Assembly (NCBI GenBank): GCA_036252695.1
Contig: GCA_036252695.1_4122.1
Reading direction: 5' to 3' (one strand)
Source: a phage
DNA length: 64,000 nt
How positions within the stretch are numbered: the stretch's first letter is position 1; each line of letters begins with the position of its first letter. The notes under the pieces are model-generated. The model had not been told where the DNA came from. It saw only the letters and a program-made list of their open reading frames with translations, and made no database searches. This document shows, in pieces, positions 14,663-46,917 of this stretch. The translations under genes and the position numbers were made by a program.

Positions 14663-14687
14663 TATTAACTCAATAGGAAAACGATAA

Positions 14688-15011: not shown

Positions 15012-15017
15012 AAACTA

Positions 15018-15076: not shown

Positions 15077-15095
15077 CAGTACTGAGGAAAGAAAA

Positions 15096-15308
15096 ATGCA
15101 AGGTCAACTAATCGTTCGTAAATGGTCTGATACTAACGCTAAACCGTGGGATGTACAATACATCGCCCCCAATGGTGAATCCAGATATCAACCAGGTGTA
15201 ACGCATAGTACTGAGCAATTTGCCGCCGCTCACCGTGAACGACTGTTACAATCCATGCAGCAAGGCTTCGGTGAAAAATTCATTCAGGATCATTGGCTGA
15301 AAGATTAA
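15096..15308 (+). CDS. hypothetical early protein
   Basis: RBS gaggaaa; ATG 15096. Confidence 0.6.
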   Translation: MQGQLIVRKWSDTNAKPWDVQYIAPNGESRYQPGVTHSTEQFAAAHRERLLQSMQQGFGEKFIQDHWLKD

Positions 15309-15315
15309 AAAGTAC

Positions 15316-15374
15316 TTGCACAGTACTGAATAAAGTGTATAATGTTTTATATCGAGAGGGGAACTATTCCCCTC
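15316..15374 (+). promoter_or_regulatory. sigma70 promoter + 5' stem-loop cassette
   Basis: -35 TTGCAC 15316-15321, -10 TATAAT 15338-15343, hairpin gaggggaactattcccctc. Confidence 0.7.
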
Positions 15375-15394
15375 CTAACAAAAAGGAAAGTATA

Positions 15395-15568
15395 ATGATC
15401 CAAGTAGAATTATCAGTACTGAAAGATCTATTTTATCGGTTAGGTACTAATGGCGAGTATCCTAAAAGTGATACCGCAAAACTTTTTGTATCACTCGACT
15501 TATGGCAACGCGAACAATTAGTAATGTCGTGGCGTAAAGGTAAAGCAGATCGCGAGGTGAAAGCATGA
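15395..15568 (+). CDS. small hypothetical protein
   Basis: RBS aaggaaa; ATG 15395. Confidence 0.55.
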   Translation: MIQVELSVLKDLFYRLGTNGEYPKSDTAKLFVSLDLWQREQLVMSWRKGKADREVKA

Positions 15569-15714
15569 AAGAATTCTTATTCGAAGTAGTGTTTCAAGGT
15601 GTCGGTAGTAACCAACTGATTCGCTCAAGTGGTTATAATGTTAACCAGGCATGGAATAACATTAAACAAATGTACCCGAACGCTATCACATATCGCAACC
15701 CGAAAGAAGTTTAA
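15565..15714 (+). CDS. small hypothetical protein (49 aa; not in ORF track)
   Basis: ATGA overlap with upstream stop; MKEFLFEVVFQGV... Confidence 0.35.
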   Translation: MKEFLFEVVFQGVGSNQLIRSSGYNVNQAWNNIKQMYPNAITYRNPKEV

Positions 15715-15724
15715 AAATAATTGA

Positions 15725-15900
15725 AAAAGGGATTGACTCCGGTCAATCCCTTTGCTATTATATACGCATAGAAACAAATTAGCCCACCGGGTGCATAAAT
15801 GTATCTATTGTTTGCTGGTGGCTAGTACTATCAAGTACTGAAAACTATTTTTAAAAAAGTACTTGCATTGTACTTAGAATCAAGTATAATGTTTTACATC
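15725..15900 (+). repeat. dispersed ~175-bp intergenic module (copy similar to 20941-21105)
   Basis: Perfect hairpin gggattgactccggtcaatccc with embedded TTGACT/TATTAT; agcccaccgggtgc box. Confidence 0.85.
15864..15890 (+). promoter_or_regulatory. sigma70 promoter (upstream of conserved leader copy 2)
   Basis: -35 TTGCAT 15864-15869, -10 TATAAT 15885-15890. Confidence 0.65.
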
Positions 15901-15976
15901 AGGACGGGGAACGAAATAAGTAACTTCCCGTTAAGTAGTCCAGGAGTAAGACATACGAAAAACTCCCCTGATAAAA
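15897..15976 (+). ncRNA. candidate small RNA / structured leader, copy 2
   Basis: Near-identical to 4922-5000 with a few substitutions; between tandem promoters. Confidence 0.25.
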
Positions 15977-15980
15977 TAGT

Positions 15981-16008
15981 TTGACAATAGAAATTAAACG
16001 AGTATAAT
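15981..16008 (+). promoter_or_regulatory. sigma70 promoter
   Basis: -35 TTGACA 15981-15986, -10 TATAAT 16003-16008. Confidence 0.7.
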
Positions 16009-16040
16009 ACTTACATCAACCACTGATAAGGAAACATAAA

Positions 16041-16316
16041 ATGCGGATTCTACTGACAGCTAACGAAATCGAACAAGTACTGACTACTAACCTGGAAGAC
16101 TGGAAACGTGAAGCAGATATCCAGTCGGTTCAATGGCTTAACGATAAGTTAACGCCGGATGACTTAAGCAAGATTGTAGATCCTCAATTCTACGAAGATA
16201 TCCACGACACCGCGTTAAGCGTCGAGGATGTACTAGATAAGCACTTTATTGATACAGATTTGCAGGTTTACGGTCGTAAAAACTTTATCACTATTCACGA
16301 CATTTACAATACTTAA
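16041..16316 (+). CDS. hypothetical acidic protein
   Basis: RBS aaggaaa; ORF track. Confidence 0.65.
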   Translation: MRILLTANEIEQVLTTNLEDWKREADIQSVQWLNDKLTPDDLSKIVDPQFYEDIHDTALSVEDVLDKHFIDTDLQVYGRKNFITIHDIYNT

Positions 16317-16319
16317 GTA

Positions 16320-16382
16320 TTGACAAAGTATCTTAGTACTGTATAATAGTTTACATCAAGTGAGGGGAAACGGTTCCCCTCC
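16320..16382 (+). promoter_or_regulatory. sigma70 promoter + 5' stem-loop cassette
   Basis: -35 TTGACA 16320-16325, -10 TATAAT 16342-16347, hairpin gaggggaaacggttcccctc; duplicated at 16591. Confidence 0.75.
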
Positions 16383-16404
16383 TAACAAAGAGAGAGAAAT
16401 AAAA

Positions 16405-16587
16405 ATGGCTAAGTGCACTATCTGCAAGAAAGAAATAGTATTAGTTCCAAGTGCCCGTGAACGTGCCGCTCGGTTTGGTGGCAAAGCGTCAGACTATACA
16501 AAAATGTTTACTGCCCATACAGCTTGCCAGGTAGCAAAACGTTCACAAGAAAGCGTAGAATTAATGCGTAAACTTTCCAAAAAATAA
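16405..16587 (+). CDS. small Cys-containing protein (possible zinc ribbon)
   Basis: MAKCTICKKE...HTACQ; RBS agagagaga. Confidence 0.55.
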   Translation: MAKCTICKKEIVLVPSARERAARFGGKASDYTKMFTAHTACQVAKRSQESVELMRKLSKK

Positions 16588-16590
16588 GTA

Positions 16591-16652
16591 TTGACAAAGT
16601 ATCTTAGTACTGTATAATAGTTTACATCAAGTGAGGGGAATGGTTCCCCTCC
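16591..16652 (+). promoter_or_regulatory. sigma70 promoter + 5' stem-loop cassette
   Basis: -35 TTGACA 16591-16596, -10 TATAAT 16613-16618, hairpin gaggggaatggttcccctc. Confidence 0.75.
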
Positions 16653-16674
16653 TAACAAAAAGAGAGAAATTAAA

Positions 16675-16998
16675 ATGACTATGATCCTTACCCAGAAAGT
16701 AGAAATGAAAATTGTAACTTCCTTTGACATTAAAGTTAATCGGTGGACTGATAGCCACGGCAATACTTACCACTCATGCTACGTGTCTGCATTGATTGGT
16801 GACCGCTGGGAAGACCTGGGACATGAAACCTTTACTTACGGTTACGGTACACAAGGCGAATACACGGGCTTGGAGATCATTAAAGAAACCGTTATAGGTT
16901 TCAACCCGAAAGAAAAAGTTATTCACCGCATCGAGGAAGAGATCAACAAAGAAATTACAGTTCGTTACTACGATGTAAAACGTAAGAAAGACATGTAA
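16675..16998 (+). CDS. hypothetical early protein (paralog of 9591..9914)
   Basis: NRWTDSHGNTYHSC...ETFTYGYG...VKRKKDM. Confidence 0.7.
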   Translation: MTMILTQKVEMKIVTSFDIKVNRWTDSHGNTYHSCYVSALIGDRWEDLGHETFTYGYGTQGEYTGLEIIKETVIGFNPKEKVIHRIEEEINKEITVRYYDVKRKKDM

Positions 16999-17020
16999 TA
17001 GAATCCATTTAAAGTACTAT

Positions 17021-17049
17021 TTGACATTGCCCAGATAGTACTTTATAAT
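17021..17049 (+). promoter_or_regulatory. sigma70 promoter
   Basis: -35 TTGACA 17021-17026, 17-nt spacer, -10 TATAAT 17044-17049. Confidence 0.7.
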
Positions 17050-17097
17050 AGACTCTAACTTGTAGTACTAATTAACTTAACTAATAGGATGTACACC

Positions 17098-17493
17098 ATG
17101 ATTACTAAATTCTTCGCTACCCGTGAACAAGCTCGCATCGTTGCCCGTGAAGAAGGTGAAACATTTAAAGACATGGGCAAAGATGCACCGAAAGGACAAC
17201 GCTGGGCGGTACAGTTCAAAGAGATCTCTGATATTGTGAATTCACCTGAACCAGTACTTACTGAAGCAGAACTGAAGAAAGCTCAAGAACTGGCTGAAGT
17301 ACTGAACGCTCAAGATGACTTCTTGAAAGGTTCTGATATTCAAGTACAAGTGAATAGTAATGCATGGACTCACGCGGATCACCTGGCAAACCTTAAGCGT
17401 CCAAGTGAACTGATTCGTAACCAGAAAGAGATTCGTCATGACCGTAAAGGAAACCGTGTAACAGTATACAGTAAACGCCGCCAGGTTATCTAA
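17098..17493 (+). CDS. hypothetical early protein (paralog of 4056..4322)
   Basis: FATREQARIVAREEGETFKDMG...RKGNRVTVY. Confidence 0.65.
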   Translation: MITKFFATREQARIVAREEGETFKDMGKDAPKGQRWAVQFKEISDIVNSPEPVLTEAELKKAQELAEVLNAQDDFLKGSDIQVQVNSNAWTHADHLANLKRPSELIRNQKEIRHDRKGNRVTVYSKRRQVI

Positions 17494-17516
17494 TAACTTT
17501 GCAGTACTAACAACAC

Positions 17517-17542
17517 GGCGGGAACTATTCCCGCCTTTTTTA
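17517..17542 (+). terminator. intrinsic terminator
   Basis: ggcgggaactattcccgcc + ttttttat. Confidence 0.7.
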
Positions 17543-17555
17543 TAGGATAAACAAA

Positions 17556-17810
17556 ATGATTAAGGTTCAACTATCAAACGATAATGTATTACGGGTACAC
17601 TATAAAGCCCCACAGAGAATCATCACAAAGGCCGTACAGCTTGCTAATGAGTTTATTAATGGTAGTCTATTGCCTAGGAAGTTAAGCAACGGGAAACTAC
17701 GTGTTATCGATGTAGACACTAACAATAGAATAGTGATCGAGAGTACTGGAAAAATTAATCTATATGAACACCAACAATACAATAAAAAAATAAAACTAAT
17801 ATCACGTTGA
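17556..17810 (+). CDS. hypothetical protein
   Basis: RBS aggataa; ORF track. Confidence 0.55.
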   Translation: MIKVQLSNDNVLRVHYKAPQRIITKAVQLANEFINGSLLPRKLSNGKLRVIDVDTNNRIVIESTGKINLYEHQQYNKKIKLISR

Positions 17811-17835
17811 CAGTACTCAAATGTTTTAGTATTAT
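17807..17835 (+). promoter_or_regulatory. sigma70 promoter
   Basis: -35 TTGACA 17807-17812, -10 TATTAT 17830-17835; module duplicated at 18088. Confidence 0.65.
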
Positions 17836-17868
17836 GTATCTATACCAACACAGAGAGAGAGAAACAAA

Positions 17869-18087
17869 ATGAAATTATCTAAAATCGAAAAGAAAACTAT
17901 TGATGAAGCAGTGAAGCACGGTTATACCTTTCGTAATGATTCACACTTCACTAGTTTTCAACAGGGAAACCGTACCATCAAAAAACTCATTGATAAAGGT
18001 TTACTCACTAAGGTTGATAACGGGAACGGTGTAGAATATCAACCGACAGAAGACGCATTATCACTAAAGAAATATTCTATTATCTAA
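17869..18087 (+). CDS. hypothetical protein
   Basis: RBS agagagaga; ORF track. Confidence 0.6.
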   Translation: MKLSKIEKKTIDEAVKHGYTFRNDSHFTSFQQGNRTIKKLIDKGLLTKVDNGNGVEYQPTEDALSLKKYSII

Positions 18088-18116
18088 TTGACAGTACTCA
18101 AATGTTTTAGTACTAT
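18088..18116 (+). promoter_or_regulatory. sigma70 promoter
   Basis: -35 TTGACA 18088-18093, -10 TACTAT 18111-18116. Confidence 0.6.
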
Positions 18117-18144
18117 GTACGCATACCAACACGGGGAAAACAAA

Positions 18145-18387
18145 ATGATTACTTTAGAAAAACGTATCAAAGAGACTACAACGCTGGTGGAACTGTTAAC
18201 CGTTCTTAAATGCCGGGTAACTCCATTCAGTACACCGGACTTTATCAACATGGTGGACGTTAACGGTCGATATCGTATTGCGGTCGAACAAGGTACGGCA
18301 AAAGTATTCAGTACTAAAAATACGCGTGAAGTATTCCACGCAGTTCAAGTAAAAAAAGTAGTTGCCATTGATAGTAAAGTACTGTAA
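18145..18387 (+). CDS. hypothetical protein
   Basis: ATG 18145 after acggggaaaacaaa RBS region. Confidence 0.55.
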   Translation: MITLEKRIKETTTLVELLTVLKCRVTPFSTPDFINMVDVNGRYRIAVEQGTAKVFSTKNTREVFHAVQVKKVVAIDSKVL

Positions 18388-18418
18388 TATAGTTTCATTA
18401 ACTCAAGGAGTCAACACA

Positions 18419-19003
18419 ATGCGTAACTATACTAAATTCATCCGTTCACTTCATGCAATGGAAACCAACAAAGAGATCCTTTCAGCTTGTCGGTTAGCTG
18501 GACTGGAGATCGTCGGTGCGGGTTCTTCCCGTATTGTATTCGCTTTAAATGATCGGTTAGTGATTAAGGTCGCGAATTGTGATGCGGGTGTAGAACAAAA
18601 TGAAACTGAATGTAAGGTATGGAATTTTTTAGATTATGACCGTCCGCACCTTAAACAGTACTTTGCTAAAGTGCATATGCATTTATGCGATCCTGATAAT
18701 CTGTTTATTGTTATGGATCGTTTGAGTACTGCAAGCAAAGGCAGTGTAAAGCATGTAAACGCGTGCAATGAGTTAAAGTACAATATTAAACGTAATACGG
18801 TAGAACGCCATCACCATTTCGCTGATGCTCTCAATCACGTTGATGATACATTATCCACACTAACGATAAGAGATATCAGAAAACAGAATATCGGCCAGGA
18901 TCGCAACGGCTTGATTAAAGTACTTGATTACGGTTTAACCCGCAATATCTGGAATCAGTACTATAAAAAACGTGATGTTAACGCGATAACTATAACACGA
19001 TAA
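18419..19003 (+). CDS. putative minimal Ser/Thr protein-kinase-like protein
   Basis: Gly-rich loop GAGSSRIVF, VIKV lysine, catalytic-loop-like IRDIRKQNI, DFG-like LDYG; RBS aaggag. Confidence 0.45.
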   Translation: MRNYTKFIRSLHAMETNKEILSACRLAGLEIVGAGSSRIVFALNDRLVIKVANCDAGVEQNETECKVWNFLDYDRPHLKQYFAKVHMHLCDPDNLFIVMDRLSTASKGSVKHVNACNELKYNIKRNTVERHHHFADALNHVDDTLSTLTIRDIRKQNIGQDRNGLIKVLDYGLTRNIWNQYYKKRDVNAITITR

Positions 19004-19011
19004 AAAAGATT

Positions 19012-19205
19012 AAAAAAGGGATTGACTCCAGTCAGTCCCTTTGCTATTATATATTCATTGAGAGATAACTCACTGACCCATAGGGTGCGGAAGTGTATCT
19101 ATTATATAAGTATTCAGTACTGAAAACTATTTTATAAAAAGTACTTGCAAACTATCTCAATGAGCGTATAATGTTTTATATCGAGAGGGGGAAATGGTTC
19201 TCCCT
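19012..19205 (+). repeat. dispersed ~190-bp intergenic module (near-identical to 11717-11910)
   Basis: Same hairpin/promoter, acccatagggtgcgg box and promoter cassette. Confidence 0.85.
19145..19205 (+). promoter_or_regulatory. sigma70 promoter + 5' stem-loop cassette
   Basis: -35 TTGCAA 19145-19150, -10 TATAAT 19167-19172, hairpin agggggaaatggttctccct. Confidence 0.75.
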
Positions 19206-19227
19206 GGTACTAAAAGGAATCAAGACG

Positions 19228-19449
19228 ATGACTACTATGACATGCGTTCACGCTTCAAATCTTCTGAATGATGCAGCATTTAAAGCAGGTGAAGAATATC
19301 AATGCTATCGGGATGAAAATAAAAAAGTTTTCGTCGTTGATGCTAACGGTTTCCATATTGAATTACAATCCGGCTTCACTGGTGTTGATGGTAAATCAGT
19401 ATGGGGCGTACAGGATGATAACGGTACATATCATTTTAAACGTAATTAA
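19228..19449 (+). CDS. hypothetical early protein
   Basis: RBS aaaagga; ATG 19228. Confidence 0.6.
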   Translation: MTTMTCVHASNLLNDAAFKAGEEYQCYRDENKKVFVVDANGFHIELQSGFTGVDGKSVWGVQDDNGTYHFKRN

Positions 19450-19452
19450 GTA

Positions 19453-19511
19453 TTGACAAAGTATATCAGTACTGTATAATAGTTTACATCAAGGGGAGAA
19501 TAGCTCTCCCC
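19453..19511 (+). promoter_or_regulatory. sigma70 promoter + 5' stem-loop cassette
   Basis: -35 TTGACA 19453-19458, -10 TATAAT 19475-19480, hairpin ggggagaatagctctcccc. Confidence 0.75.
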
Positions 19512-19533
19512 ACCAATAAAAGGAAACAAAATT

Positions 19534-19806
19534 ATGTCCAGCTACTCCGCTACTATGATTATTAAAGATATGAACGGTAATCCTACTTCTGCTGGTGGAT
19601 CATTTGGTAACATTAATTTAGATGGGCGGTTATCAATTGAATCAGCCATCAATGCAGCGAAAGAAGTTTTTAAGAATGAATGTACTGTAAGCAAACTGGA
19701 TTATATGGGCTTCGCTATCGAGAAAACTAATCGTTTTGTGGACTACAAAAAACCACTGATGATTGATACTAACCTGAAAGCAAACGAAGTGGAATACTTA
19801 TTATGA
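19534..19806 (+). CDS. hypothetical early protein
   Basis: RBS aaaggaaa; ORF track. Confidence 0.65.
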   Translation: MSSYSATMIIKDMNGNPTSAGGSFGNINLDGRLSIESAINAAKEVFKNECTVSKLDYMGFAIEKTNRFVDYKKPLMIDTNLKANEVEYLL

Positions 19807-19994
19807 CAGTAGAAGAAGTTAAAAAAGTACTGGCAGTACTACGCTATCATAATCATTGTAAGGTGAAGAATGATCCTGATTATCTTGATTCATCGCTGGA
19901 AGAGGATACACTACAAGCAATAAGCCATATGCAAAAAATGCTTAAGCGTATGACCGAAAAGAACAGGCCGGACTATATCGGAAATAAAATTTAA
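19803..19994 (+). CDS. hypothetical protein
   Basis: ATGA start/stop overlap with upstream gene. Confidence 0.5.
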   Translation: MTVEEVKKVLAVLRYHNHCKVKNDPDYLDSSLEEDTLQAISHMQKMLKRMTEKNRPDYIGNKI

Positions 19995-20001
19995 AAAGTA
20001 C

Positions 20002-20058
20002 TTGCATTGTAAGTAAAACAAAGTATAATGTTTTACATAGGGGGAGATATCCTCCCCC
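20002..20058 (+). promoter_or_regulatory. sigma70 promoter + 5' stem-loop cassette
   Basis: -35 TTGCAT 20002-20007, -10 TATAAT 20024-20029, hairpin gggggagatatcctccccc. Confidence 0.75.
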
Positions 20059-20077
20059 ACTAATAAGGAGTACTAAA

Positions 20078-20302
20078 ATGGCTAACTTTGATGAACTGAT
20101 GCGGGAAGTAGCTACCCTGGCAGAAGAGAAGAAATCATTTGATTCTATCTATAACACCGCTTACAGTGATTCAGTACTGGCATGTACTCAGGATCAAAAA
20201 GATGAACTGATCGCCACCTATCATGAAGCATGGAAGTATTACCGCCAATGGGAGAAAGAAGAAAGCGAGTCTACCATCAACGGCATCAATAATCTAATCT
20301 AA
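20078..20302 (+). CDS. hypothetical acidic protein
   Basis: RBS aaggag; ORF track. Confidence 0.65.
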   Translation: MANFDELMREVATLAEEKKSFDSIYNTAYSDSVLACTQDQKDELIATYHEAWKYYRQWEKEESESTINGINNLI

Positions 20303-20320
20303 AGTTTTATTTCAGTACTA

Positions 20321-20349
20321 TTGACAATGCGTGATAGTACTGATGTAAT
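20321..20349 (+). promoter_or_regulatory. sigma70 promoter
   Basis: -35 TTGACA 20321-20326, -10 TGTAAT 20344-20349. Confidence 0.55.
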
Positions 20350-20377
20350 AACTTTACTAACTACAAGGGGAAACATA

Positions 20378-20635
20378 ATGGAACAGTTCACACAATATCG
20401 GGTAAATCCTCAAGCTATGGCCTACGTAGAAGACCATAAAACATTACCAGTACAGACACCAATCAAAGGCCGTATCTATCGTGCTATGCAGTGGAATAAC
20501 GCCTATAATGGCTATAAAGCGGTAGCGGCTGCAATGTACTTAGGGGATGGCGAATGGTTTGATCCAAATAATCCTGGTGCACTAGATAGTACTGAACAAA
20601 TGACATGGGCCGACTATATCGAAGATATTTCATAA
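20378..20635 (+). CDS. hypothetical protein
   Basis: RBS aagggga; ATG 20378. Confidence 0.6.
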   Translation: MEQFTQYRVNPQAMAYVEDHKTLPVQTPIKGRIYRAMQWNNAYNGYKAVAAAMYLGDGEWFDPNNPGALDSTEQMTWADYIEDIS

Positions 20636-20642
20636 AAACTAT

Positions 20643-20703
20643 TTGACAGTACTACAAGATAATGTATAATGTTTTACATAGAGCGGGGGAATAGTTCTCC
20701 CGC
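20643..20703 (+). promoter_or_regulatory. sigma70 promoter + 5' stem-loop cassette
   Basis: -35 TTGACA 20643-20648, -10 TATAAT 20665-20670, hairpin gcgggggaatagttctcccgc. Confidence 0.75.
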
Positions 20704-20723
20704 ACCTTTAGGAGTAAAACATT

Positions 20724-20924
20724 ATGTCAATCGCTAACGAATTGGTTGCAGTACTGAATGAAGCAAAAGCCAACTGCATCGATGTACAGATCAAAGAGCT
20801 TGGCAATGGCTTGATCGGCTGTACTTGTACAGTGCAAACGGCTACCGATTATCGGGAAGTGGAATCACTCGAATCACTGGTACGGTATATTAAAATCCTG
20901 GTAGAAGATTGGAGAATCATCTAA
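20724..20924 (+). CDS. hypothetical protein
   Basis: RBS taggagt; ORF track. Confidence 0.6.
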   Translation: MSIANELVAVLNEAKANCIDVQIKELGNGLIGCTCTVQTATDYREVESLESLVRYIKILVEDWRII

Positions 20925-20940
20925 CAAAAAAGAATAAAAA

Positions 20941-21105
20941 AAAGGGATTGACTCCGGTCAGTCCCTTTGCTATTATATACGCATAGACAAAAACTAGCCC
21001 ACAGGGTGCAGAGAAGTATCTATAAGATAGTTAATAACGGTGAGTAACTATCTGCTGGTGGATGTAATGCCAGTACTCAAAACTATTTCAAAAAAAGTAT
21101 TGACA
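20941..21105 (+). repeat. dispersed intergenic module (copy similar to 15725-15900)
   Basis: aaagggattgactccggtcagtccctttgctattatatacgcatag + agcccacagggtgc. Confidence 0.85.
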
Positions 21106-21127
21106 AAGTATATCAGTACTGAGATAA
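21100..21127 (+). promoter_or_regulatory. sigma70 promoter
   Basis: -35 TTGACA 21100-21105, -10 GATAAT 21122-21127; module duplicated at 21417. Confidence 0.65.
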
Positions 21128-21182
21128 TGTATCTCGTAGGGCGGCAATAGTGCAGCCCACCTCCAAAAGAGCGAGATATAAA

Positions 21183-21398
21183 ATGGCGTTAACCAAACAA
21201 GAAATTATCGACCGTATCAAAGAGTCAACTGGCTGGTATGTTGGGGACCGTTTAATTGTTAAAGTTCTCGATTATTCAAATAATCCTCTTGCACCGGAAC
21301 CAGTGGCATACAAATTATCCTGGATATCTGCGTTTAGCGGTAAGCGTGAAAGATGTGTGTACTATCCGAACACAGTCGGGCTACAGTTCTGTAAATAA
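21183..21398 (+). CDS. hypothetical protein
   Basis: ATG 21183; ORF track frame. Confidence 0.55.
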   Translation: MALTKQEIIDRIKESTGWYVGDRLIVKVLDYSNNPLAPEPVAYKLSWISAFSGKRERCVYYPNTVGLQFCK

Positions 21399-21416
21399 AT
21401 TTTAATAGAAAAAGTA

Positions 21417-21445
21417 TTGACAAAGTATATCAGTACTGCAATAAT
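21417..21445 (+). promoter_or_regulatory. sigma70 promoter
   Basis: -35 TTGACA 21417-21422, -10 AATAAT 21440-21445. Confidence 0.6.
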
Positions 21446-21498
21446 GTATCTCGTAGGGCGGCAATGGTGCGACGGCCCACAAAGTTAGGAGATTCACC

Positions 21499-21825
21499 AT
21501 GAGTACTTCAATCGCTATCGTTAAAGCTTTCATCCGTACCAATTTCGACCGCATTACTGTTGATGGTAATGATCGGGAAGTAGAATACTCTTTCATTGTT
21601 GCACAAACCGCAAACGGTGCACGCTATATCTTAAACGATAGTGAAGCTAACCACTACTTCTATAATAAAGGATTACACTACATCCCTAGCGAAGTAGTCT
21701 ACAGTAAGATGAATAAGCTGGTAGACAAGATTAACGCTAAAGGTACTATCGATTTACAGTACTGGACCGAAACCGATCCAGAATACGGATCACATCGTTA
21801 CCTGAATCCAGGAATTAAAATGTAA
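21499..21825 (+). CDS. hypothetical protein
   Basis: RBS taggaga; ORF track. Confidence 0.65.
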   Translation: MSTSIAIVKAFIRTNFDRITVDGNDREVEYSFIVAQTANGARYILNDSEANHYFYNKGLHYIPSEVVYSKMNKLVDKINAKGTIDLQYWTETDPEYGSHRYLNPGIKM

Positions 21826-21833
21826 AAAGTACT

Positions 21834-21894
21834 TGCATTGTACTTAGAATCAAGTATAATGTTTTACATAGAGAGGGGGAAATGGTTCTCCCTC
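21834..21894 (+). promoter_or_regulatory. sigma70 promoter + 5' stem-loop cassette
   Basis: -35 TTGCAT 21834-21839, -10 TATAAT 21855-21860, hairpin gagggggaaatggttctccctc; same promoter sequence as 15864. Confidence 0.75.
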
Positions 21895-21914
21895 CTAAAT
21901 TAAGGAGTTTTATC

Positions 21915-22316
21915 ATGACCTTCTCAATCACTTCCTTCGCTGACGTTTTAGTACTGGCTCGGACTTTTGGTAAAGATGCACTGGAGTACGCTGTAAGTAA
22001 TGGCACTCTCCAACCGGAACAATGCCGCATCATTGGAAACTGCAAACGTTGGGCGGTATCCAATACTATTGCACTAGAAAACTTCAACGATGGTAACAAT
22101 GAGTATTCAGTTGATGCAGTATTCGAAGCCGTTGATCTTGGCGGTATCTATAACACTAACCTAAATGATGTGCGTATCGTTCGCACGGGGTTCGGTGCTT
22201 ATGATGTATCTATCCGTGAAGCTATGAACACCGGATACATTAGTAAGGACTTACTTGCTCACATCATGCAGCTATGGACGGAACGTAACGAAGCACGCAC
22301 TATCTTAGGGCTGTAA
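21915..22316 (+). CDS. hypothetical protein (133 aa)
   Basis: RBS taaggag; ATG 21915. Confidence 0.65.
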   Translation: MTFSITSFADVLVLARTFGKDALEYAVSNGTLQPEQCRIIGNCKRWAVSNTIALENFNDGNNEYSVDAVFEAVDLGGIYNTNLNDVRIVRTGFGAYDVSIREAMNTGYISKDLLAHIMQLWTERNEARTILGL

Positions 22317-22340
22317 GCATTACACATCACCAAACATCAT

Positions 22341-22360
22341 AGGCCGCTCTCTAGCGGCCT
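22341..22360 (+). terminator. hairpin, possible weak terminator
   Basis: aggccgctctctagcggcct; no T tract. Confidence 0.3.
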
Positions 22361-22384
22361 TAACTATATCAGGAGGGCATACAT

Positions 22385-22594
22385 ATGTTCTATACAGTAT
22401 ACAGCGTTCTAGGTACTATTGCTGGCGTACATGATAACGTCAGTGATGCTATGCGTACAGTACTGCAACAGGTTCCACTAAAGCCTAAGACTGTTAAGCA
22501 GATGACAGCACGACTAACCAGGGCGACGGATGGCGTGGAAGTATGGCAGGACTACGGGGATACACAGATAATCGTTAGCGTAACGAAGGATTAA
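22385..22594 (+). CDS. hypothetical protein
   Basis: RBS aggaggg; ORF track. Confidence 0.6.
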   Translation: MFYTVYSVLGTIAGVHDNVSDAMRTVLQQVPLKPKTVKQMTARLTRATDGVEVWQDYGDTQIIVSVTKD

Positions 22595-22625
22595 TGCGTA
22601 AAGGGATCTAGTACTGATTCAGAAA

Positions 22626-22690
22626 AAAGTCAAGGCGTTTTTAAAATAATGCGTTAAAAAAATGCATAGGTAATCCCTTGACTTTTTTAA
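22626..22690. repeat. inverted repeat at the compositional boundary
   Basis: aaaaagtcaagg 22626.. and reverse complement ccttgacttttt ..22690, ~35-nt loop. Confidence 0.6.
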
Positions 22691-22785
22691 AATAAAAGGG
22701 ATTGGACTATGGCAAAATGCGTAGGGGGCTAAAGGGCGGGTAACCTTAGCGACTTCGATAAAGGGGTATTACGAATAAAATGTTA

Positions 22786-37986: not shown

Positions 37987-38191
37987 AGACGTTTCATTTT
38001 GACAGGCCGCTGGAGGGGGTCAAAAAAATTTCCGCTGAAAAACATGCTAAGGTATATGTTTAATATAAAGTTTTATATTGTGTTTTTCAGAGTACAGTTC
38101 ATGTTTCCTTAAACAAAAAAATACCCCGCCACCGAACGTGCTCCTTATATTGGAGTTTACCTTATTAATTATAGTAGAGACTACAATTGAA

Positions 38192-38575
38192 ATGAAGATG
38201 CAAATAAAATATAATGAATTTTGTGCAAGGACATGGATGTACACTGGTGAGTTAGTTACGCACTCTAACTTATACAAGGGTGATTTAAACTACGCTAGGG
38301 ACAAGATTTTAAAGTACTGGAATGCTGACTTTTATTTGATGGATTTTAGTACTGGGTTTAGGGGTAAAGCAACCGAGATGTTGGACTATACAGTACTTGA
38401 TGATGCTGCACTGTTTCAGGAGGCATTAGTATTTGATAAGAAGTACATCTGTACATTAGAAGAGATGATTGAATTACAGCGTAGAATTAAATGTATTCAC
38501 AGGGAATGTATAGATATCTGGTGCAGTACTGGTGAAGATGATTTTTGTAATCATTTCAATCTAGGGGAAGTGTGA
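38192..38575 (+). CDS. FQ-motif family protein (subtype C, LFQEALVFDKKY)
   Basis: DYTVLDDAALFQEALVFDKKYICT. Confidence 0.55.
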   Translation: MKMQIKYNEFCARTWMYTGELVTHSNLYKGDLNYARDKILKYWNADFYLMDFSTGFRGKATEMLDYTVLDDAALFQEALVFDKKYICTLEEMIELQRRIKCIHRECIDIWCSTGEDDFCNHFNLGEV

Positions 38576-38799
38576 TGGAATTTGATTTTTTAATATCAGT
38601 ACATACGGTCAAGGGTGCACCTCAGTACCTTTGTAATTTAAACAAAGGTGATTTGATTATGGATACAGATACAGAAGTTGTATACAGTTCTAATGTTCTG
38701 TGCAAGGAATTTCAGAATTCGAAAATGCTTGAGTTATTGTGCATTGCTGATTGTAATATTCTGTACAAATTCAGTACTAATCTGAAGGAGATTTTATGA
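38572..38799 (+). CDS. truncated subtype-C paralog (N-terminal part only)
   Basis: MMEFDFLISVHTVKG...CNLNKGDL matches N-terminus of 39164 gene; no FQ motif. Confidence 0.45.
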   Translation: MMEFDFLISVHTVKGAPQYLCNLNKGDLIMDTDTEVVYSSNVLCKEFQNSKMLELLCIADCNILYKFSTNLKEIL

Positions 38800-39164
38800 A
38801 AAAAGAAATTAGAATCCAATTCGGTATGAGGAAAAAAGAGGTCATCTGTACACTGAATCATGCGGACGTGGAAATGGGTGGTGCATTACAAAAATTCTCA
38901 CATTTTGTTCTTGTACTATATGAAAATGGGTCTTTTAAAATCTTCACATATGATGATTCAAAAAATTACCGTAATGATTTTGTAAATCTTACAGTACTGT
39001 CAGAAGAGGAATTCTTTCAGGAAAGTACTGTCTGGAATTTACAAGGAGCACCAATTGAATACGTCCGTGCTACACAGGTAGAGATGATCAAAACAATGCA
39101 GAACTATCCAGAAGATTATATGACTAAGTTTCCTGAATCTTTTAATGTAGAGGTTGAGTACTGA
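38796..39164 (+). CDS. FQ-motif family protein (B)
   Basis: EEEFFQESTVWN. Confidence 0.55.
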   Translation: MKKEIRIQFGMRKKEVICTLNHADVEMGGALQKFSHFVLVLYENGSFKIFTYDDSKNYRNDFVNLTVLSEEEFFQESTVWNLQGAPIEYVRATQVEMIKTMQNYPEDYMTKFPESFNVEVEY

Positions 39165-39520
39165 TGGAATTTGATTTTTTAATATCAGTACATTCTTTTA
39201 AGCACAGTTTTCAGTACTTTTGTAATTTAAACAAAGGTGATTTAATGCACAGTGCGAATGAGTATATTCATTTTACTGATGGTAAATTCTCATTTATTGA
39301 TTACAGTTCATTAGATTTTCCATACACTGATATGCCGGACTATACATTGATGGATGCTGGTGAACTATTTCAAGCTGCATTAGTATTTGACAAGAAGTAC
39401 ATCTGTACATTTGAAGAAGTAATTACTATACAAAATGAAATGAAGGTGTATGCATCGTTGAATAAACCTAATGAATGTATTAATCAAGAATACAAATTCA
39501 ATATAGGAATTCCAAAATGA
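39164..39520 (+). CDS. FQ-motif family protein (subtype C)
   Basis: DYTLMDAGELFQAALVFDKKYICT. Confidence 0.55.
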   Translation: MEFDFLISVHSFKHSFQYFCNLNKGDLMHSANEYIHFTDGKFSFIDYSSLDFPYTDMPDYTLMDAGELFQAALVFDKKYICTFEEVITIQNEMKVYASLNKPNECINQEYKFNIGIPK

Positions 39521-39876
39521 CATATGATTATTCTATGTATTATTATAAGTTACCTAAAGGATGGGACTTGTGCTGTAATCTTATTAAGGGAGACTCGGAA
39601 CATGAGTTGAGTTTATATATGCACTACAAAGATTCTTGTTTTAAATTTATTCATGTATTACATGATGGCTATGACTATGAATCTGAGAGTCTTATAGATT
39701 ATACAGTACTGGACGATGGTGAACTATTTCAGGAAGCATTAGTGTTTGATAAGAATAAGTACTCCTGTACATTTGAAGAAATGGTTTCTTTGCAAAATGA
39801 AATGAAGAGATTTGAAAAAGAAAACGTATTTAATCCATCCCCATCAAGAACGAATAATTATTATTTCAATATATGA
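39517..39876 (+). CDS. FQ-motif family protein (subtype C)
   Basis: DYTVLDDGELFQEALVFDKNKYSCT. Confidence 0.55.
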   Translation: MTYDYSMYYYKLPKGWDLCCNLIKGDSEHELSLYMHYKDSCFKFIHVLHDGYDYESESLIDYTVLDDGELFQEALVFDKNKYSCTFEEMVSLQNEMKRFEKENVFNPSPSRTNNYYFNI

Positions 39877-39885: not shown

Positions 39886-40356
39886 ATGACATTACAGAGT
39901 TCATTGGAAAAAGCAAAGAAGATTCATGAGTACATGAATATGGCAAAAGAAGGTTCAGTTTACGGTGTTTTCAAAGACACAAGTACTCAATATTATGTGC
40001 CGGATAACCTCCTTTATAATGACTGCTCAGATACAGAAACGTGCGTACTGGATACCGACCCTAATGATTATGAATGCTTCATTAATATGCATAATGAGTA
40101 CATGGTCTATATTAATGATACAGATACCATCTACAGTACTGATAGCGATTCCGATGACATTATAATTCCGAGTGAAGTACTGGAAGGTCCGTGGGATAGT
40201 GAAGAGTATTACTTCCAACAAAGTACTGTATACGATAATGAAGTACTTGATGTTATTATAATTATGTGGTACTTTAAAAGTATTGGTTCTGGGAACTTCT
40301 ATTTCGATTACAAATACGTAAAGAAAACTGTAGATAACGGTATTAACAGGGGTTAA
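39886..40356 (+). CDS. FQ-motif family protein (subtype D, EEYYFQ...WYFK)
   Basis: VLEGPWDSEEYYFQQSTVYD...IMWYFKS...FYFD. Confidence 0.6.
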   Translation: MTLQSSLEKAKKIHEYMNMAKEGSVYGVFKDTSTQYYVPDNLLYNDCSDTETCVLDTDPNDYECFINMHNEYMVYINDTDTIYSTDSDSDDIIIPSEVLEGPWDSEEYYFQQSTVYDNEVLDVIIIMWYFKSIGSGNFYFDYKYVKKTVDNGINRG

Positions 40357-40357
40357 A

Positions 40358-40828
40358 ATGAGTTTAGAAAGAGCATTAGAGATTGCGAAGTTAATTGATT
40401 TATGCAGCAAAGAAATTGTAGCAAATTGTCTCAATGGATATCTATTCAAGGAAGGTAAATCTTATTGTCGAATGAGATACGATGACAGTAGTGAGTACAT
40501 TCACATGTATGAAGAAAACTTAGATTCTTCTGAAACAACACTCAATGGGTGTGATGTTAATTTGGAAGATAATTACATGTACTTCTGTCGTGATGCTGAT
40601 ATTTTAATACAAGATTCTGACATTATATCTGGTGCAGCAGAGAAACATCTTCCGTATTCAGTACTGGATAATGACTGGGGAAGTGAAGAGTACTACTTCC
40701 AGCAGAATACGATCTACGCAGAAGATGTACTTGACAAGCTTGTCATTCTGTGGTACTTTAATAATACAGATTGTCCTAGCTTCTATTTGGACTTGGATCT
40801 ACTACGAGTTATTAAAGAGGATATATGA
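40358..40828 (+). CDS. FQ-motif family protein (subtype D)
   Basis: VLDNDWGSEEYYFQQNTIYA...LWYFNN. Confidence 0.6.
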   Translation: MSLERALEIAKLIDLCSKEIVANCLNGYLFKEGKSYCRMRYDDSSEYIHMYEENLDSSETTLNGCDVNLEDNYMYFCRDADILIQDSDIISGAAEKHLPYSVLDNDWGSEEYYFQQNTIYAEDVLDKLVILWYFNNTDCPSFYLDLDLLRVIKEDI

Positions 40829-41268
40829 GTTTAGCAAGTGCACTTGAACTAGCACACAGAATACATCACTTCCACGATAACATAAAAAGTGGGTTCTATG
40901 GTGATAAAGTAAGTGCATTTGGTGATGAGTATTATCTATCAGGTATAAAGACATACTCTGATGATATTTTACTTATGGGACAGGATAAAGACAATACTAT
41001 ACAGTACTCTTCATGTAGTCAATATACTAATTTTTTTGTATATATTCCAGGTACTAAGATTACTTTTGACACAACAAATACACCTGTTGACTTCGGGGTA
41101 CTTGATGGCCCGTGGGGTACTGAAGAGTATTACTTCCAACAGAGTCTCATTTTTAACCAAGAAATTCTTGATTCCTTGGTTGTGTTGTGGTACTTTAAGG
41201 AATTGAATTTTGAACCATTCTTTCTTGACTGGGGAGCATGTGAATATTTAAGTACAGGGGATTTGTAA
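40825..41268 (+). CDS. FQ-motif family protein (subtype D)
   Basis: VLDGPWGTEEYYFQQSLIFN...LWYFKE. Confidence 0.6.
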   Translation: MSLASALELAHRIHHFHDNIKSGFYGDKVSAFGDEYYLSGIKTYSDDILLMGQDKDNTIQYSSCSQYTNFFVYIPGTKITFDTTNTPVDFGVLDGPWGTEEYYFQQSLIFNQEILDSLVVLWYFKELNFEPFFLDWGACEYLSTGDL

Positions 41269-41756
41269 TGTCATTACAAAGTGCATTGAAAGAAGCAAAG
41301 AAGATTCATGAGTACATGATTATGGTACAGGAAGGTTCAGTACCAGGTGTATATAAAACATCTGATACTGAATTTTTTGTAAAAGACCGTGACGATTATG
41401 ACGAGTCCGAGATATGTGCAGAAACATTAGTACTGCACACTGATACTGGTGACAGTGATAACTGTGAATATCATATGTACAATCAGTACATTAGTTATTG
41501 TCGTAATGAAGATATTACCATCTACAACACAGATAGTGATGCTGATGACACTATCATTCCTTATTCAGTACTGGAAGGACCGTGGGATAGTGAAGAATAT
41601 TACTTCCAGAATAGTACGTTGTACAATGAAGAAGAATTAGATGTTATTGTAATTATGTGGTATTTCAAAAGTATTGACTCCAGTAGTTTCTATTTTGATT
41701 ATGAATATGTAGAGAATACTGTAGGAGAAGGTAATGTCATTACAAAGTGCTCTTGA
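41268..41756 (+). CDS. FQ-motif family protein (subtype D)
   Basis: VLEGPWDSEEYYFQNSTLYN...IMWYFKS. Confidence 0.6.
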   Translation: MSLQSALKEAKKIHEYMIMVQEGSVPGVYKTSDTEFFVKDRDDYDESEICAETLVLHTDTGDSDNCEYHMYNQYISYCRNEDITIYNTDSDADDTIIPYSVLEGPWDSEEYYFQNSTLYNEEELDVIVIMWYFKSIDSSSFYFDYEYVENTVGEGNVITKCS

Positions 41757-42186
41757 AAAAGCAAAAGAACTACATGGATACTTTGACGATATAAAGGCAG
41801 GAAAGTTCAAAGAAGTGTACAAAGCCGAGAACGGCAACTACTACAAGGATGAAATGTATAATAACTCCGTTGGTGTAAGGGTTATTCTTGGGTTGAATTC
41901 CAATAGTCCTATATCGTTTTCTGAATACAATAGAGATGCAGAATTTATTAGTTATGTTGAAAATGGTAGCATTCGTTTTATTAATCGCAAAAAACCATTA
42001 ATTTTGAATTATGAAGTACTGGAAGGTCCGTGGGATAGTGAAGAGTATTACTTCCAAAACAGTACTGTATACGATGATGAAGTACTTGAAGCATTAGTTA
42101 TTATGTGGTACTTCAAGAGTGTTAGCTGCCCTCGATTTTATTTGGATTTCGAAGAACTTCGTAAAGATCCAGAAGGTATAGAATGA
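41734..42186 (+). CDS. FQ-motif family protein (subtype D)
   Basis: VLEGPWDSEEYYFQNSTVYD...IMWYFKS. Confidence 0.6.
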   Translation: MSLQSALEKAKELHGYFDDIKAGKFKEVYKAENGNYYKDEMYNNSVGVRVILGLNSNSPISFSEYNRDAEFISYVENGSIRFINRKKPLILNYEVLEGPWDSEEYYFQNSTVYDDEVLEALVIMWYFKSVSCPRFYLDFEELRKDPEGIE

Positions 42187-42497
42187 AAAACTTATTCAGT
42201 GTTCAGTACGTTCCTGGTGAAATTGGTTTATTGTATCTATTTGACCATGATAATTCATTATTACTAGTAGTGAAGAAATGCCAAGCTAGTTCGTTTGTTG
42301 AATACATTCACGATAGTGAATACATTCCTGATTTCCTAGAGTGTGATTATCACGATGAACATGAATCATTTATTTTTCAGGAATCACTCGTATGGGATAA
42401 ATCGATCAACTTCTTTACGTTAATTGAATTACAAAAGCAGGTGAAGTATCATTGGGATTACTTAATTACACAGGATTACATTGAGATTGAAACATAA
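42183..42497 (+). CDS. FQ-motif family protein (B)
   Basis: HESFIFQESLVWD. Confidence 0.55.
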   Translation: MKNLFSVQYVPGEIGLLYLFDHDNSLLLVVKKCQASSFVEYIHDSEYIPDFLECDYHDEHESFIFQESLVWDKSINFFTLIELQKQVKYHWDYLITQDYIEIET

Positions 42498-42805
42498 TGA
42501 CAAAAAATGAATTTGATTCACTTTGTACGGTTTATAATTCATTGACAGAAATACCTGACTTTATTAATTACATTTCAGCTTTAAATCAAATTATGCATAG
42601 TTTTGAACAATCGTTTGAAGAGAAATATGCAGGTAGAAAAGTTCTATGTCATATGTCAATGTACTTAGGAGATGGTGAGCCTTACACTACCAGTACTACA
42701 TGTGAAATAAAAAAATATAATATATTATTGGGGACAATAGAATTCAAGGTATCCAATGGTGGTAGTTATATGTACTTTAGAGATGGAGTGGTTGAATTAT
42801 TATGA
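42497..42805 (+). CDS. hypothetical protein
   Basis: ORF track; no family motif. Confidence 0.45.
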   Translation: MTKNEFDSLCTVYNSLTEIPDFINYISALNQIMHSFEQSFEEKYAGRKVLCHMSMYLGDGEPYTTSTTCEIKKYNILLGTIEFKVSNGGSYMYFRDGVVELL

Positions 42806-43251
42806 GTTACGAAAGTGCAATCAAGAAAGCAAATGATATTCTAAAAGTTGTTCAGTTCTTCAAAGAAAATCCTGAATACCTAGATGATGAAAACCATGAT
42901 CACGATGAGAGATTGAGACGAAAAATTGTCGCTTTATTTGACACTAATGCGGATAATTATAGTCTAATTGAGTTAGCATACGATTATATTTCATTGAACC
43001 GAAACGGACATTTAGTTAATATAGAAAGACATGCGACTGAAGAATCTTTTAAAATTTCAGACATTTTATCCCTGAGTACTGAAGAAGGGTACTTCCAGGG
43101 TAGTACTGTTTATGAACAAGGAACGCTTGACAATCTATGCACATTTAGTGTAATATATCAGAAATCAGTACTGGATGTATTTTATCTTGACACTGCTGAA
43201 CTGGATACACTAATCAATTTTGTTACTACTGAAGAGGCCACATTTGAGTGA
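42802..43251 (+). CDS. FQ-motif family protein (D-like)
   Basis: TEEGYFQGSTVYE. Confidence 0.55.
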   Translation: MSYESAIKKANDILKVVQFFKENPEYLDDENHDHDERLRRKIVALFDTNADNYSLIELAYDYISLNRNGHLVNIERHATEESFKISDILSLSTEEGYFQGSTVYEQGTLDNLCTFSVIYQKSVLDVFYLDTAELDTLINFVTTEEATFE

Positions 43252-46354: not shown

Positions 46355-46891
46355 ATGTTAGATAAAAAAATGAACTCTGGAACCCAATATAATCATCTTA
46401 AGTTGGATACATTCGAATCAGCTATCAGTACAGCACAAGATATAATTGATATTATCAAGTTCATTAAAGAAGATAAGTTCAAATGTGTGAAAATACTAAA
46501 TCGTTCAATGTACCGTGATAAAAATATTCATGTATCAGTACGTAGACCGAAAGATCAAGAAAGTGGGAGAGATTTCTATAACAACAGTGAGCAGTTCGAA
46601 TGTGAATATGATCCAGAATTTAGAGGTGGTTTCATGTGTTACAGTATGAAGGATACCTCACACATTGAGATACGTTCATCGAAAGGTGGCATACGTACAT
46701 TAGAGTTTATTGATATAGTTTTAAATCAGGAATACTACTTTCAACTATCATTATTGTTTCCTGCATACGATTTAGGAGTTCTATTCATGTATAAGTACTT
46801 TCATGAGCACTGGAATGAAGACTTCTATCTGGACTTAGAAGATTACCAATTAGTTTGGGAAGAAATGGTAGAACTTCGCAACCACTCTTGA
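46355..46891 (+). CDS. FQ-motif family protein (D-like)
   Basis: RBS tgaggt; NQEYYFQLSLLFP...FYLDLEDY. Confidence 0.55.
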   Translation: MLDKKMNSGTQYNHLKLDTFESAISTAQDIIDIIKFIKEDKFKCVKILNRSMYRDKNIHVSVRRPKDQESGRDFYNNSEQFECEYDPEFRGGFMCYSMKDTSHIEIRSSKGGIRTLEFIDIVLNQEYYFQLSLLFPAYDLGVLFMYKYFHEHWNEDFYLDLEDYQLVWEEMVELRNHS

Positions 46892-46917
46892 CACCCACCG
46901 ATTTTTTGTGATATAAT
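46888..46917 (+). promoter_or_regulatory. sigma70 promoter internal to the array
   Basis: -35 TTGACA 46888-46893, 18-nt spacer, -10 TATAAT 46912-46917. Confidence 0.6.

Follow-up and report, generated by a model that had tools for sequence, protein, structure and literature searches.

Five tandem genes with conserved ends and a divergent middle in a Rak2/121Q-like jumbo coliphage: ancient duplicates within an array of related genes

Introduction

How do neighbouring genes come to share their two ends while their middles have almost nothing in common? The question is raised by five consecutive plus-strand genes at positions 39886-42186 of a 64,000-nucleotide stretch of phage DNA (contig GCA_036252695.1_4122.1 of the GenBank assembly GCA_036252695.1), which was analysed over its full length and is called the window below. 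In an initial annotation made from the letters alone, the pattern had been ascribed to recent duplication followed by targeted diversification of a specificity region. We named the genes D1 to D5 and compared them with each other, with their orthologs in other isolates and with the remaining genes of the window. The duplications turned out to be ancient, and the likeness of the ends is due to constraint on the protein sequence, i.e., purifying selection, and not to young DNA. Taking all data together, we consider it likely that D1-D5 are old tandem paralogs, the youngest recognisable subfamily of a lineage-specific family termed FQ here, whose members combine a conserved core with a diverged sheet and may act as early host-interaction effectors.

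The DNA comes from a jumbo coliphage of the Rak2/121Q type that belongs to the genus Asteriusvirus. Its D region is 97-98% identical on the DNA level to the phages G17, Sharanji and SHEFM2K, with matches in 36 phage records. In phage 121Q the counterparts of D1-D5 are gp370-374, and every gene is annotated as 'hypothetical protein'.

Results

Conserved ends and a variable core

The five genes were found as annotated, abutting each other on the plus strand and encoding proteins of 147-162 residues: D1 (39886..40356; 156 residues, isoelectric point (pI) 4.06), D2 (40358..40828; 156 residues, pI 4.12), D3 (40825..41268; 147 residues, pI 4.25), D4 (41268..41756; 162 residues, pI 4.05) and D5 (41734..42186; 150 residues, pI 4.67), whose first 23 nucleotides overlap the end of D4. 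D1 is the ortholog of 121Q gp370 and of phAPEC6 gp442c. All five proteins are acidic and soluble, with pI values of 4.05-4.67 and net charges of -10 to -26, and hydrophobic segments were not found in any of them. They share the N-terminal consensus M[ST]L.S[AS]L..A..I and the C-terminal consensus VL[ED]..W[DG][ST]EEYYFQ[QN][SN]...[VIE]L[DE]..[VI][IV][ML]WYF[KN]....F[YF][FL]D. The forms of these motifs quoted in the initial annotation were essentially right; deviations are minor and concern D1, which begins with MTL, D2 with VLDNDWGS, and D3 with GT and SL.

In the protein alignment of the five copies, identity to D1 ranged from 30 to 59%, and almost all of the 21 invariant columns reside in the two ends. 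The mean pairwise column identity was 0.59 at the ends (columns 1-14 and 109-154) and 0.17 in the middle (columns 15-108), a highly significant difference (one-sided Mann-Whitney test, P=6e-15). Within an alignment of 51 sequences, the five window copies gave values of 0.68 for columns 1-10, 0.07-0.29 for columns 11-110 and 0.45-0.76 for columns 111-150. Divergence is not uniform along the alignment, and the discrete variable core that had been described does exist. It had been said to comprise about 60 central residues which differ almost completely. The divergent middle is in fact 75-85 residues long in each copy, and the nearly complete difference applies to most pairs (9-20% identity) but not to D1 and D4, whose middles are 44% identical. 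An aromatic strand pattern, [YF]xx[YF], is still visible throughout the D middles.

Age of the duplications and selection on the middle

The D locus of the window was compared with that of ten other isolates. In these isolates each D copy of the window has a one-to-one positional ortholog and the gene order is kept. Orthologs are 70-100% identical, whereas the D paralogs share only 27-60% of their residues. The proportion of synonymous differences (pS) and the ratio of nonsynonymous to synonymous divergence (dN/dS) were estimated by the method of Nei and Gojobori. Between paralogs, pS amounted to 0.64-0.98 in the middle and to 0.38-0.83 in the conserved C-terminus, values at or near saturation. 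Even the closest pair, D1 and D4, gave a pS of 0.74 in the middle. Since synonymous sites are saturated between paralogs and each copy has its own orthologs, the duplications must have taken place long before the radiation of these phages. Thus, the genes are tandem duplicates as had been proposed, but they are ancient and not recent ones.

Between orthologs, the middle had a dN/dS of 0.14-0.47 and the C-terminus one of 0.10-0.31, i.e., below 1 in all regions. The middle was somewhat less conserved than the ends (identity of 0.83 versus 0.90; P=0.001). The middle evolves somewhat faster, yet this part of the D proteins is now under purifying selection as well within each ortholog lineage, only moderately more relaxed. 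A template/variable repeat pair was not found; the sole repeats within 39.5-42.6 kb are the conserved gene ends. Nothing points to an ongoing targeted diversification of the D middle, and this part of the initial explanation did not hold.

Isolates differ by mosaic patches that comprise several genes and cross gene junctions, and by replacement of whole genes, not by swaps of the middle. In 121Q, for instance, a patch of low identity (40666-40960) extends from the C-terminus of D2 into D3. The phages fEgEco12, WPEC5 and ph0011 are devoid of D1; its slot holds a short-form FQ paralog and an unrelated open reading frame (ORF) of 61 residues. In fEgEco12 the slot corresponds to locus positions 1985-2511, and the breakpoints fall on gene boundaries. 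A look for recombination breakpoints at the conserved ends had been proposed; those that we saw lie between genes (fEgEco12) or belong to patches running across junctions (121Q). A 3′ remnant of D1 in fEgEco12 with a breakpoint at the motif was considered and rejected, as D1 has been replaced as a whole according to the alignment. In SD-1_S14, D1 is broken into two ORFs (locus positions 1549-1949), which reflects either a pseudogene or a sequencing error. Phage A4 possesses four D copies, the fourth being a divergent D4 allele whose N-terminus, middle and C-terminus are 95%, 40-50% and approximately 75% identical, respectively. The idea that this copy is a D4/D5 hybrid generated by unequal crossover was dropped, as it is this divergent D4 allele. 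Across isolates the D middles are stable. The divergent phage JNE01 carries several D-like genes, for only one of which, D2, clear orthology was ascertained (57.5% identity by BLASTP). From these data we concluded that D copies come and go, or are swapped, as whole genes, and that the locus is subject to birth-and-death evolution.

Codon usage in the motif block

The C-terminal motif of D1, VLEGPWDSEEYYFQQS, is encoded by a block of 48 nucleotides on the plus strand (40177..40224), and matching 48-nucleotide blocks are present in D2 (40661-40708), D3 (41098-41145), D4 (41568-41615) and D5 (42016-42063). The blocks (coding for VLEGPWDSEEYYFQ.S) show 75-96% DNA identity among the five copies. 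At identical residues of this 16-codon block, the same codon was used with a frequency of 0.77, compared to an expected value of 0.46, and D1 and D5 agreed in 14 of 14 codons where about 6.5 were expected. Outside the block, the observed and expected rates were 0.61 and 0.41 in the N-terminus, 0.58 and 0.47 in the rest of the C-terminus, and 0.52 and 0.48 in the middle.

A change from Pro to Gln (CCG to CAG) recurs at one and the same codon, which follows VLEG/VLDG (D1, 40189-40191; D3, 41110-41112; D4, 41580-41582; D5, 42028-42030). It was detected in D1 and D4 of 121Q, in D1, D4 and D5 of slurp01, in D3 of BF17 and in D5 of UE-S1, and could be caused by short-tract gene conversion or by parallel selection. 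When identical derived changes in several paralogs of one genome were counted and compared with a permutation null, 18 versus 11.2 were obtained for the conserved regions (approximately 1.6-fold; P=0.06) and 21 versus 11.1 for the middle (P=0.014). A constraint on the motif at the nucleotide level across the FQ family was rejected on account of its mixed codons (TTT 22, TTC 17; CAG 24, CAA 15). Occasional short-tract conversion inside the D subfamily is possible for the motif block.

Predicted structure of the D proteins

D4 was modelled by AlphaFold2 on an alignment of 39 sequences. The model reached a mean predicted local distance difference test score (pLDDT) of 87.1 and a predicted template modelling score of 0.83, and confidence dropped solely at the indel-rich loops around residues 41-50. 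It consists of a helix (residues 3-21), seven strands within residues 28-97, helices at 99-103, 109-115 (EEYYFQN), 121-135 and 146-153, and a further strand at 141-144. According to this model the variable middle would be a folded beta-sheet and not a linker. The conserved ends are predicted to form a helical core, to which the divergent part adds the seven-stranded sheet, and it is plausible in the light of the model to speak of this sheet as a 'specificity region', as the initial annotation did. The motif EEYYFQN appears as a short helix in a well-packed region (pLDDT 93-97); EExYFQ is probably a structural helix.

A structure matching the predicted D4 fold was not found in the PDB. Among the predicted structures of BFVD, the model of an uncharacterised 121Q protein of 146 residues, the length of the D3 ortholog, superimposed on D4 with TM scores of 0.78/0.86 at 29% identity. 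Further BFVD matches were uncharacterised proteins of 121Q, RaK2, GAP32 and Serratia phage BF (E=8e-13 to 1e-2), the better ones with TM scores of approximately 0.5-0.86. As judged by these predictions, FQ members share a fold composed of an N-terminal helix, a beta-sheet and C-terminal helices.

The FQ superfamily and its 30-kb array

A profile hidden Markov model (HMM) seeded with D1-D5 and iterated on the ORFs of the window converged at 39 plus-strand ORFs. These members, including the D subfamily, form an array of at least 39 paralogs that extends from 28449 to 58106 on the plus strand and makes up 39 of the 58 ORFs with 95 or more residues in this interval. About seven ORFs remained below the HMM threshold and exhibit an FQ-like motif where it would be expected (35135-35758, 36475-36816, 43248-43784, 51397-51981, 52971-53480, 55247-55831 and 57205-57618). 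They are probably more divergent members, which would raise the array to about 46 of the 58 ORFs. An acidic residue followed by two arbitrary residues and FQ was present in all 39 members, the FQ being invariant in their alignment, and [ED]E..FQ.S occurs in many of the neighbouring genes. D1-D5 scored 82-99 bits against the 39-member model (E=7e-25 to 3e-30), values which are partly circular because these proteins had seeded it. Independent support came from the 34 further ORFs recruited in the window and from 28 in phage RaK2. The median pI of the family is 4.86.

By a profile search of 1.84 billion representatives, 142 clusters were obtained in all, nearly all of them with 90-210 residues. 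Of 156 representatives, 153 carried the signature [TS]-E-E-x-[YHF]-F-Q-x-S-[TL]-[IVL]-[YH], whose median distance from the C-terminus was 51 residues. In D1-D5 it takes the form SEEYYFQ[QN][SN], D3 having TEEYYFQQS. As a side observation, the variant EEEFFQGS occurs at 32653-33210. FQ members also exist in the Klebsiella phages RaK2 and K64-1. RaK2 harbors at least 28 FQ genes in the syntenic 50 kb (240000-289999), where they constitute a one-directional block at about 5.5-36 kb of the locus, many of them with TEEGYFQ. ORFs of about 290 residues come after the block both in RaK2 and in the window. This similar layout indicates that synteny is conserved between the genera at the level of the array. 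Two ORFs of 284 residues downstream of the array (58780 and 60811) were considered as possible paralogs of each other, which they are not.

The conserved N-terminal helix is common to the D copies and the long-form FQ paralogs. In view of the family-wide conservation pattern, the conserved termini of the D proteins are simply the core of the superfamily. When the 39 members were linked by BLAST, D1-D5 made up the largest group and most others were singletons, from which it follows that, within an array that is much older, the D set arose by the latest expansion.

Each of the five D proteins matches PHROG 9317 over its whole length (profile positions 1-155/160; E=2e-55 to 9e-66, D1 with E=5e-64) and PHROGs 12674 and 34017 weakly, while the neighbouring paralogs fall into other PHROGs (12674, 34017 and 28549). 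Directly upstream of D1, short-form FQ paralogs (38192-38575, 38796-39164, 39164-39520 and 39517-39876, plus strand) belong to a gap-free run of genes (38192..39876). Downstream (42183..43251, plus strand), two FQ paralogs (42183-42497 and 42802-43251, the latter matching PHROG 12674) flank an unrelated ORF of 102 residues (42497-42805). HMM searches of the D proteins against PDB sequences gave a best E value of 0.9, which is not significant. For the neighbours of the D genes, searches of Pfam, PADLOC and PDB sequences yielded nothing significant, and the ten largest ORFs of the window outside the FQ family had no Pfam match. Neither tRNA genes nor Rfam hits were detected in positions 1-64000; the whole 64 kb appears functionally unannotated.

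Genomic setting

The genes of the array touch or overlap each other, Shine-Dalgarno-like motifs lie within the respective upstream genes, and the run from 38.2 to 46.9 kb is gapless. In the few gaps of the array there are sigma-70 promoters close to the consensus, frequently with an extended -10 region, and terminator-promoter pairs (28823, 29493, 38187, 46888, 50778 and approximately 54059). Upstream of the D genes, the strong match closest to them is a candidate sigma-70-type promoter, TTGAAA-17-TATAAT, at 38187..38215 on the plus strand. It is situated at the edge of the last gap before these genes and runs into the ATG at 38192, which leaves room for doubt about its role. The intergenic gap after that contains a perfect sigma-70 promoter sequence (12 of 12 matches, extended -10) at 46888..46917 on the plus strand, which marks where the next transcription unit starts. 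Terminator-like sites are enriched between 46 and 64 kb (14 versus 5.2 expected). We also noticed clean intrinsic terminators at 50745-50806 and 54050-54087, each directly followed by a sigma-70-type promoter, which split the array into short operons. The gap 37987-38191 is long for the array and contains the GC-rich patches GGCCGCTGGAGGGGGTC and ACCCCGCCACCGAACGTGC within an AT-rich genome; neither a match in Rfam nor a significant RNA fold (z = -0.39) was obtained for it.

By mapping to fEgEco12 and G17, a direct terminal repeat (DTR) of about 21 kb was located at approximately 1400..22746 of the window. In fEgEco12 the DTR comprises 20,993 bp, and restriction digests have confirmed the genome ends (PMC13070987). 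The GC content is 0.37-0.39 within the DTR versus 0.29-0.35 downstream and shifts at about the DTR boundary. As the window spans the repeat, the assembly is of a circularised or concatemer-like kind. The FQ array begins approximately 5.7 kb past the inner DTR boundary, outside the repeat, the D genes lie about 17 kb inward of this boundary, and transcription runs away from the terminus. The stretch of about 1400-22746 itself matches 220 phage records including other genera, which suggests that the small DTR genes are widely exchanged. The list of phAPEC6 virion proteins determined by mass spectrometry, one dataset for one phage, contains nothing between gp348 and gp548, the interval into which the D1 ortholog gp442c falls. 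This gap indicates that the D proteins are non-structural.

Discussion

Evolution and possible role of the array

We propose the following scenario for D1-D5. The N-terminal helix and the C-terminal helices with the motif [TS]EEx[YF]FQxS would meet and form a helical core, which purifying selection maintains. The seven-stranded sheet of the middle may have kept its fold while its sequence and loop lengths diverged after each duplication, before it came under purifying selection, too, in each ortholog lineage. Copies would be born, lost or replaced as whole genes, and short conversion tracts might occasionally arise in the motif block. The genes of the array may be transcribed early by the host RNA polymerase, and their products may act inside the cell in host takeover or anti-defence. 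The conserved core could then be a scaffold or docking module that all members have in common, and the diverged sheet could direct each paralog to another target. That the proteins are early and intracellular is suggested by the sigma-70 consensus promoters in the gaps, by the position of the array next to the DTR, by their absence from the phAPEC6 virion and by the early DTR genes of phage PA5oct. Our best guess is that the array encodes early intracellular proteins, for which a function as host-interaction or counter-defence effectors would be the likeliest. It is possible, albeit rather doubtful, that FQ represents an undescribed fold used as an arsenal of 30-45 early effectors, in which the core with EExYFQxS docks onto one common machine of the host or the phage and each sheet, those of D1-D5 included, recognises a different defence system or host target. 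In that case the array would be a hard-wired repertoire for counter-defence or host range that evolves by birth and death.

Several observations weigh against this scenario. The D proteins did not obtain a function from Pfam (nothing above threshold), PADLOC (0 hits) or PHROGs ('unknown'). The excess of synonymous identity in the motif block (0.77 versus 0.46) is not accounted for by amino-acid constraint alone. The totals of promoter-like sites did not exceed the shuffled expectation (106 versus 121 and 107 versus 114), and of the promoter data only the coincidence of such sites with the rare intergenic gaps is suggestive. Finally, saturation may conceal positive selection straight after duplication.

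Alternative explanations

The initial explanation, a recent duplication with dedicated or strongly selected ongoing diversification of a central 'specificity cassette' between fixed ends, agrees with the discrete variable core, with the lower conservation of the middle between orthologs and with the one divergent D4 allele of A4. It is nevertheless largely refuted and hardly credible by now, because synonymous sites are saturated in all pairs of paralogs including D1/D4, one-to-one orthologs exist in every isolate examined with a dN/dS of the middle far below 1, and isolates differ by mosaic patches across junctions and by whole genes in the absence of any template/variable repeats. Concerted evolution, in which gene conversion or unequal crossover among the tandem copies and not selection on the protein would keep the termini alike, is regarded by us as rather unlikely. 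The codon identity of the motif block with its 14 of 14 agreements between D1 and D5, the raised rate in the N-terminus, the recurrent change from CCG to CAG in 121Q, slurp01, BF17 and UE-S1 and the approximately 1.6-fold number of parallel changes in conserved regions are what such a process would produce. Under concerted evolution, however, paralogs of one genome should resemble each other more than their orthologs and differ little at synonymous sites, whereas the opposite was observed (27-60% versus 70-100% identity), and pS still reached 0.38-0.83 over the whole conserved C-terminus. The remainder of the C-terminus showed a codon identity of merely 0.58 versus 0.47, the permutation excess was equally large in the middle and may therefore mirror mutable sites, and hybrid D genes were not found. 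Moreover, the motif is kept at the protein level in all 39 paralogs by mixed codons, which argues for an amino-acid constraint throughout the family.

Could the array be mostly neutral ballast, i.e., duplicates tolerated by spare capsid capacity whose single copies have no specific function? The dispensability of single copies fits this assumption, as D1 is missing in three isolates and broken in another one and A4 has four copies, and so does the fact that no function was assignable. But every copy is an intact ORF with a dN/dS well under 1 in all regions, approximately 30-40 copies have been kept in both Asteriusvirus and Alcyoneusvirus despite saturated divergence, and the fold is confidently predicted, so that we think ballast very unlikely. 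A further alternative emanates from the motif itself. The core site of the potyviral NIa protease, known from tobacco etch virus (TEV), is E-x-x-Y-x-Q-(G/S), as in ENLYFQ(G/S), and EExYFQ(x)S might accordingly be a protease recognition site. FQ members would then be substrates or decoys of a glutamine-specific protease, whose cleavage would free a C-terminal piece of about 50 residues. The near-universal signature at a fixed distance from the C-terminus is in line with this, and EEGYFQGS (42802-43251) and EEMYFQGS (47424-47909) fit the TEV consensus exactly. On the other hand, Q is mostly succeeded by Y, N, L or Q and not by G or S, and in D1-D5 the residue after E-E-Y-Y-F-Q is Q or N. The model shows the motif as helical and well packed, not as an exposed extended loop. 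A glutamine-specific 3C-like protease is not known from these phages or from E. coli, though no search for one was made. A cleavage site thus seems extremely improbable to us, but the resemblance is a practical hazard when FQ proteins are expressed with TEV-cleavable tags. We retain the reading of D1-D5 as old paralogs with a constrained core and a diverged sheet.

Significance and comparison with known systems

In these 350-kb coliphages, several of which are considered for therapy, more than 80% of the genes are without known function. Approximately 30 kb of this dark matter, or about 8% of the genome, consists of one superfamily which is kept at 30-40 copies in at least two genera. Dozens of 'hypothetical proteins' are thereby turned into one testable problem. 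The D genes also teach caution, since tandem genes may combine conserved ends with a divergent core in the absence of any recent duplication or programmed diversification. Their pattern goes back to selection that has, over a long time, constrained the helical core and the beta-sheet surface to different degrees.

A description of the FQ superfamily, its signature or its fold was not found in the searchable literature, and papers on paralogs, transcriptomes or functions of Asteriusvirus give general remarks only. The PHROGs database divides the superfamily into separate families without function (9317, 12674, 34017 and 28549); their link through the FQ signature, a shared fold and an array of about 40 genes is new here. 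Large paralog expansion in a jumbo phage is already known as a phenomenon. Paralogues make up approximately 10% of the RaK2 proteins (PMC3622015), tandem duplication was put forward as a way in which genomes of this phage group may grow (PMC7247149), and Bacillus phage G contains a lineage-specific expansion of a zinc-ribbon family with about 35 copies (Iyer et al. 2021, PMC7824862). As in phage G, one small domain has been greatly expanded within a giant genome, but unlike the zinc ribbons the FQ domain has no recognisable relative beyond the Rak2-like phages.

With the targets of diversity-generating retroelements (DGRs) and other programmed hypervariable cassettes, the D genes superficially share conserved flanks around a variable segment. 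They differ from DGR targets by the lack of a template repeat and by orthologs that are 70-100% identical with a dN/dS below 1, i.e., by variation that is ancient and fixed. The 'gene accordion' amplification of anti-defence loci in phages is reported to yield recent, nearly identical copies (PMC13096335); the D copies are unlike them, being saturated at synonymous sites. The D array is probably neither a DGR target nor a concerted-evolution array, and it matches no curated family.

The closest parallels concern position and organisation. The host-takeover module of phage SPO1 and the pre-early genes of T5 are early blocks at terminal repeats. In PA5oct, which belongs to a related clade, the small genes of the DTR region are early genes transcribed at a high level, and this phage is dependent on its host's RNA polymerase (PMC7318152). 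The FQ array resembles these blocks in being a dense, one-directional set of small genes at or beside a long DTR with host-type promoters. It differs from them in its location beyond and not within the DTR and in comprising approximately 40 copies of one fold, whereas the genes of the other blocks are mostly unrelated. Large eukaryotic DNA viruses have multigene families near their genome ends, too, among them the MGF360/505 genes of African swine fever virus and the host-range families of poxviruses. By analogy, and not by homology, these families resemble the FQ array in their tandem paralogs close to the termini, in copy numbers that differ between isolates and in the combination of a conserved scaffold with divergent surfaces.

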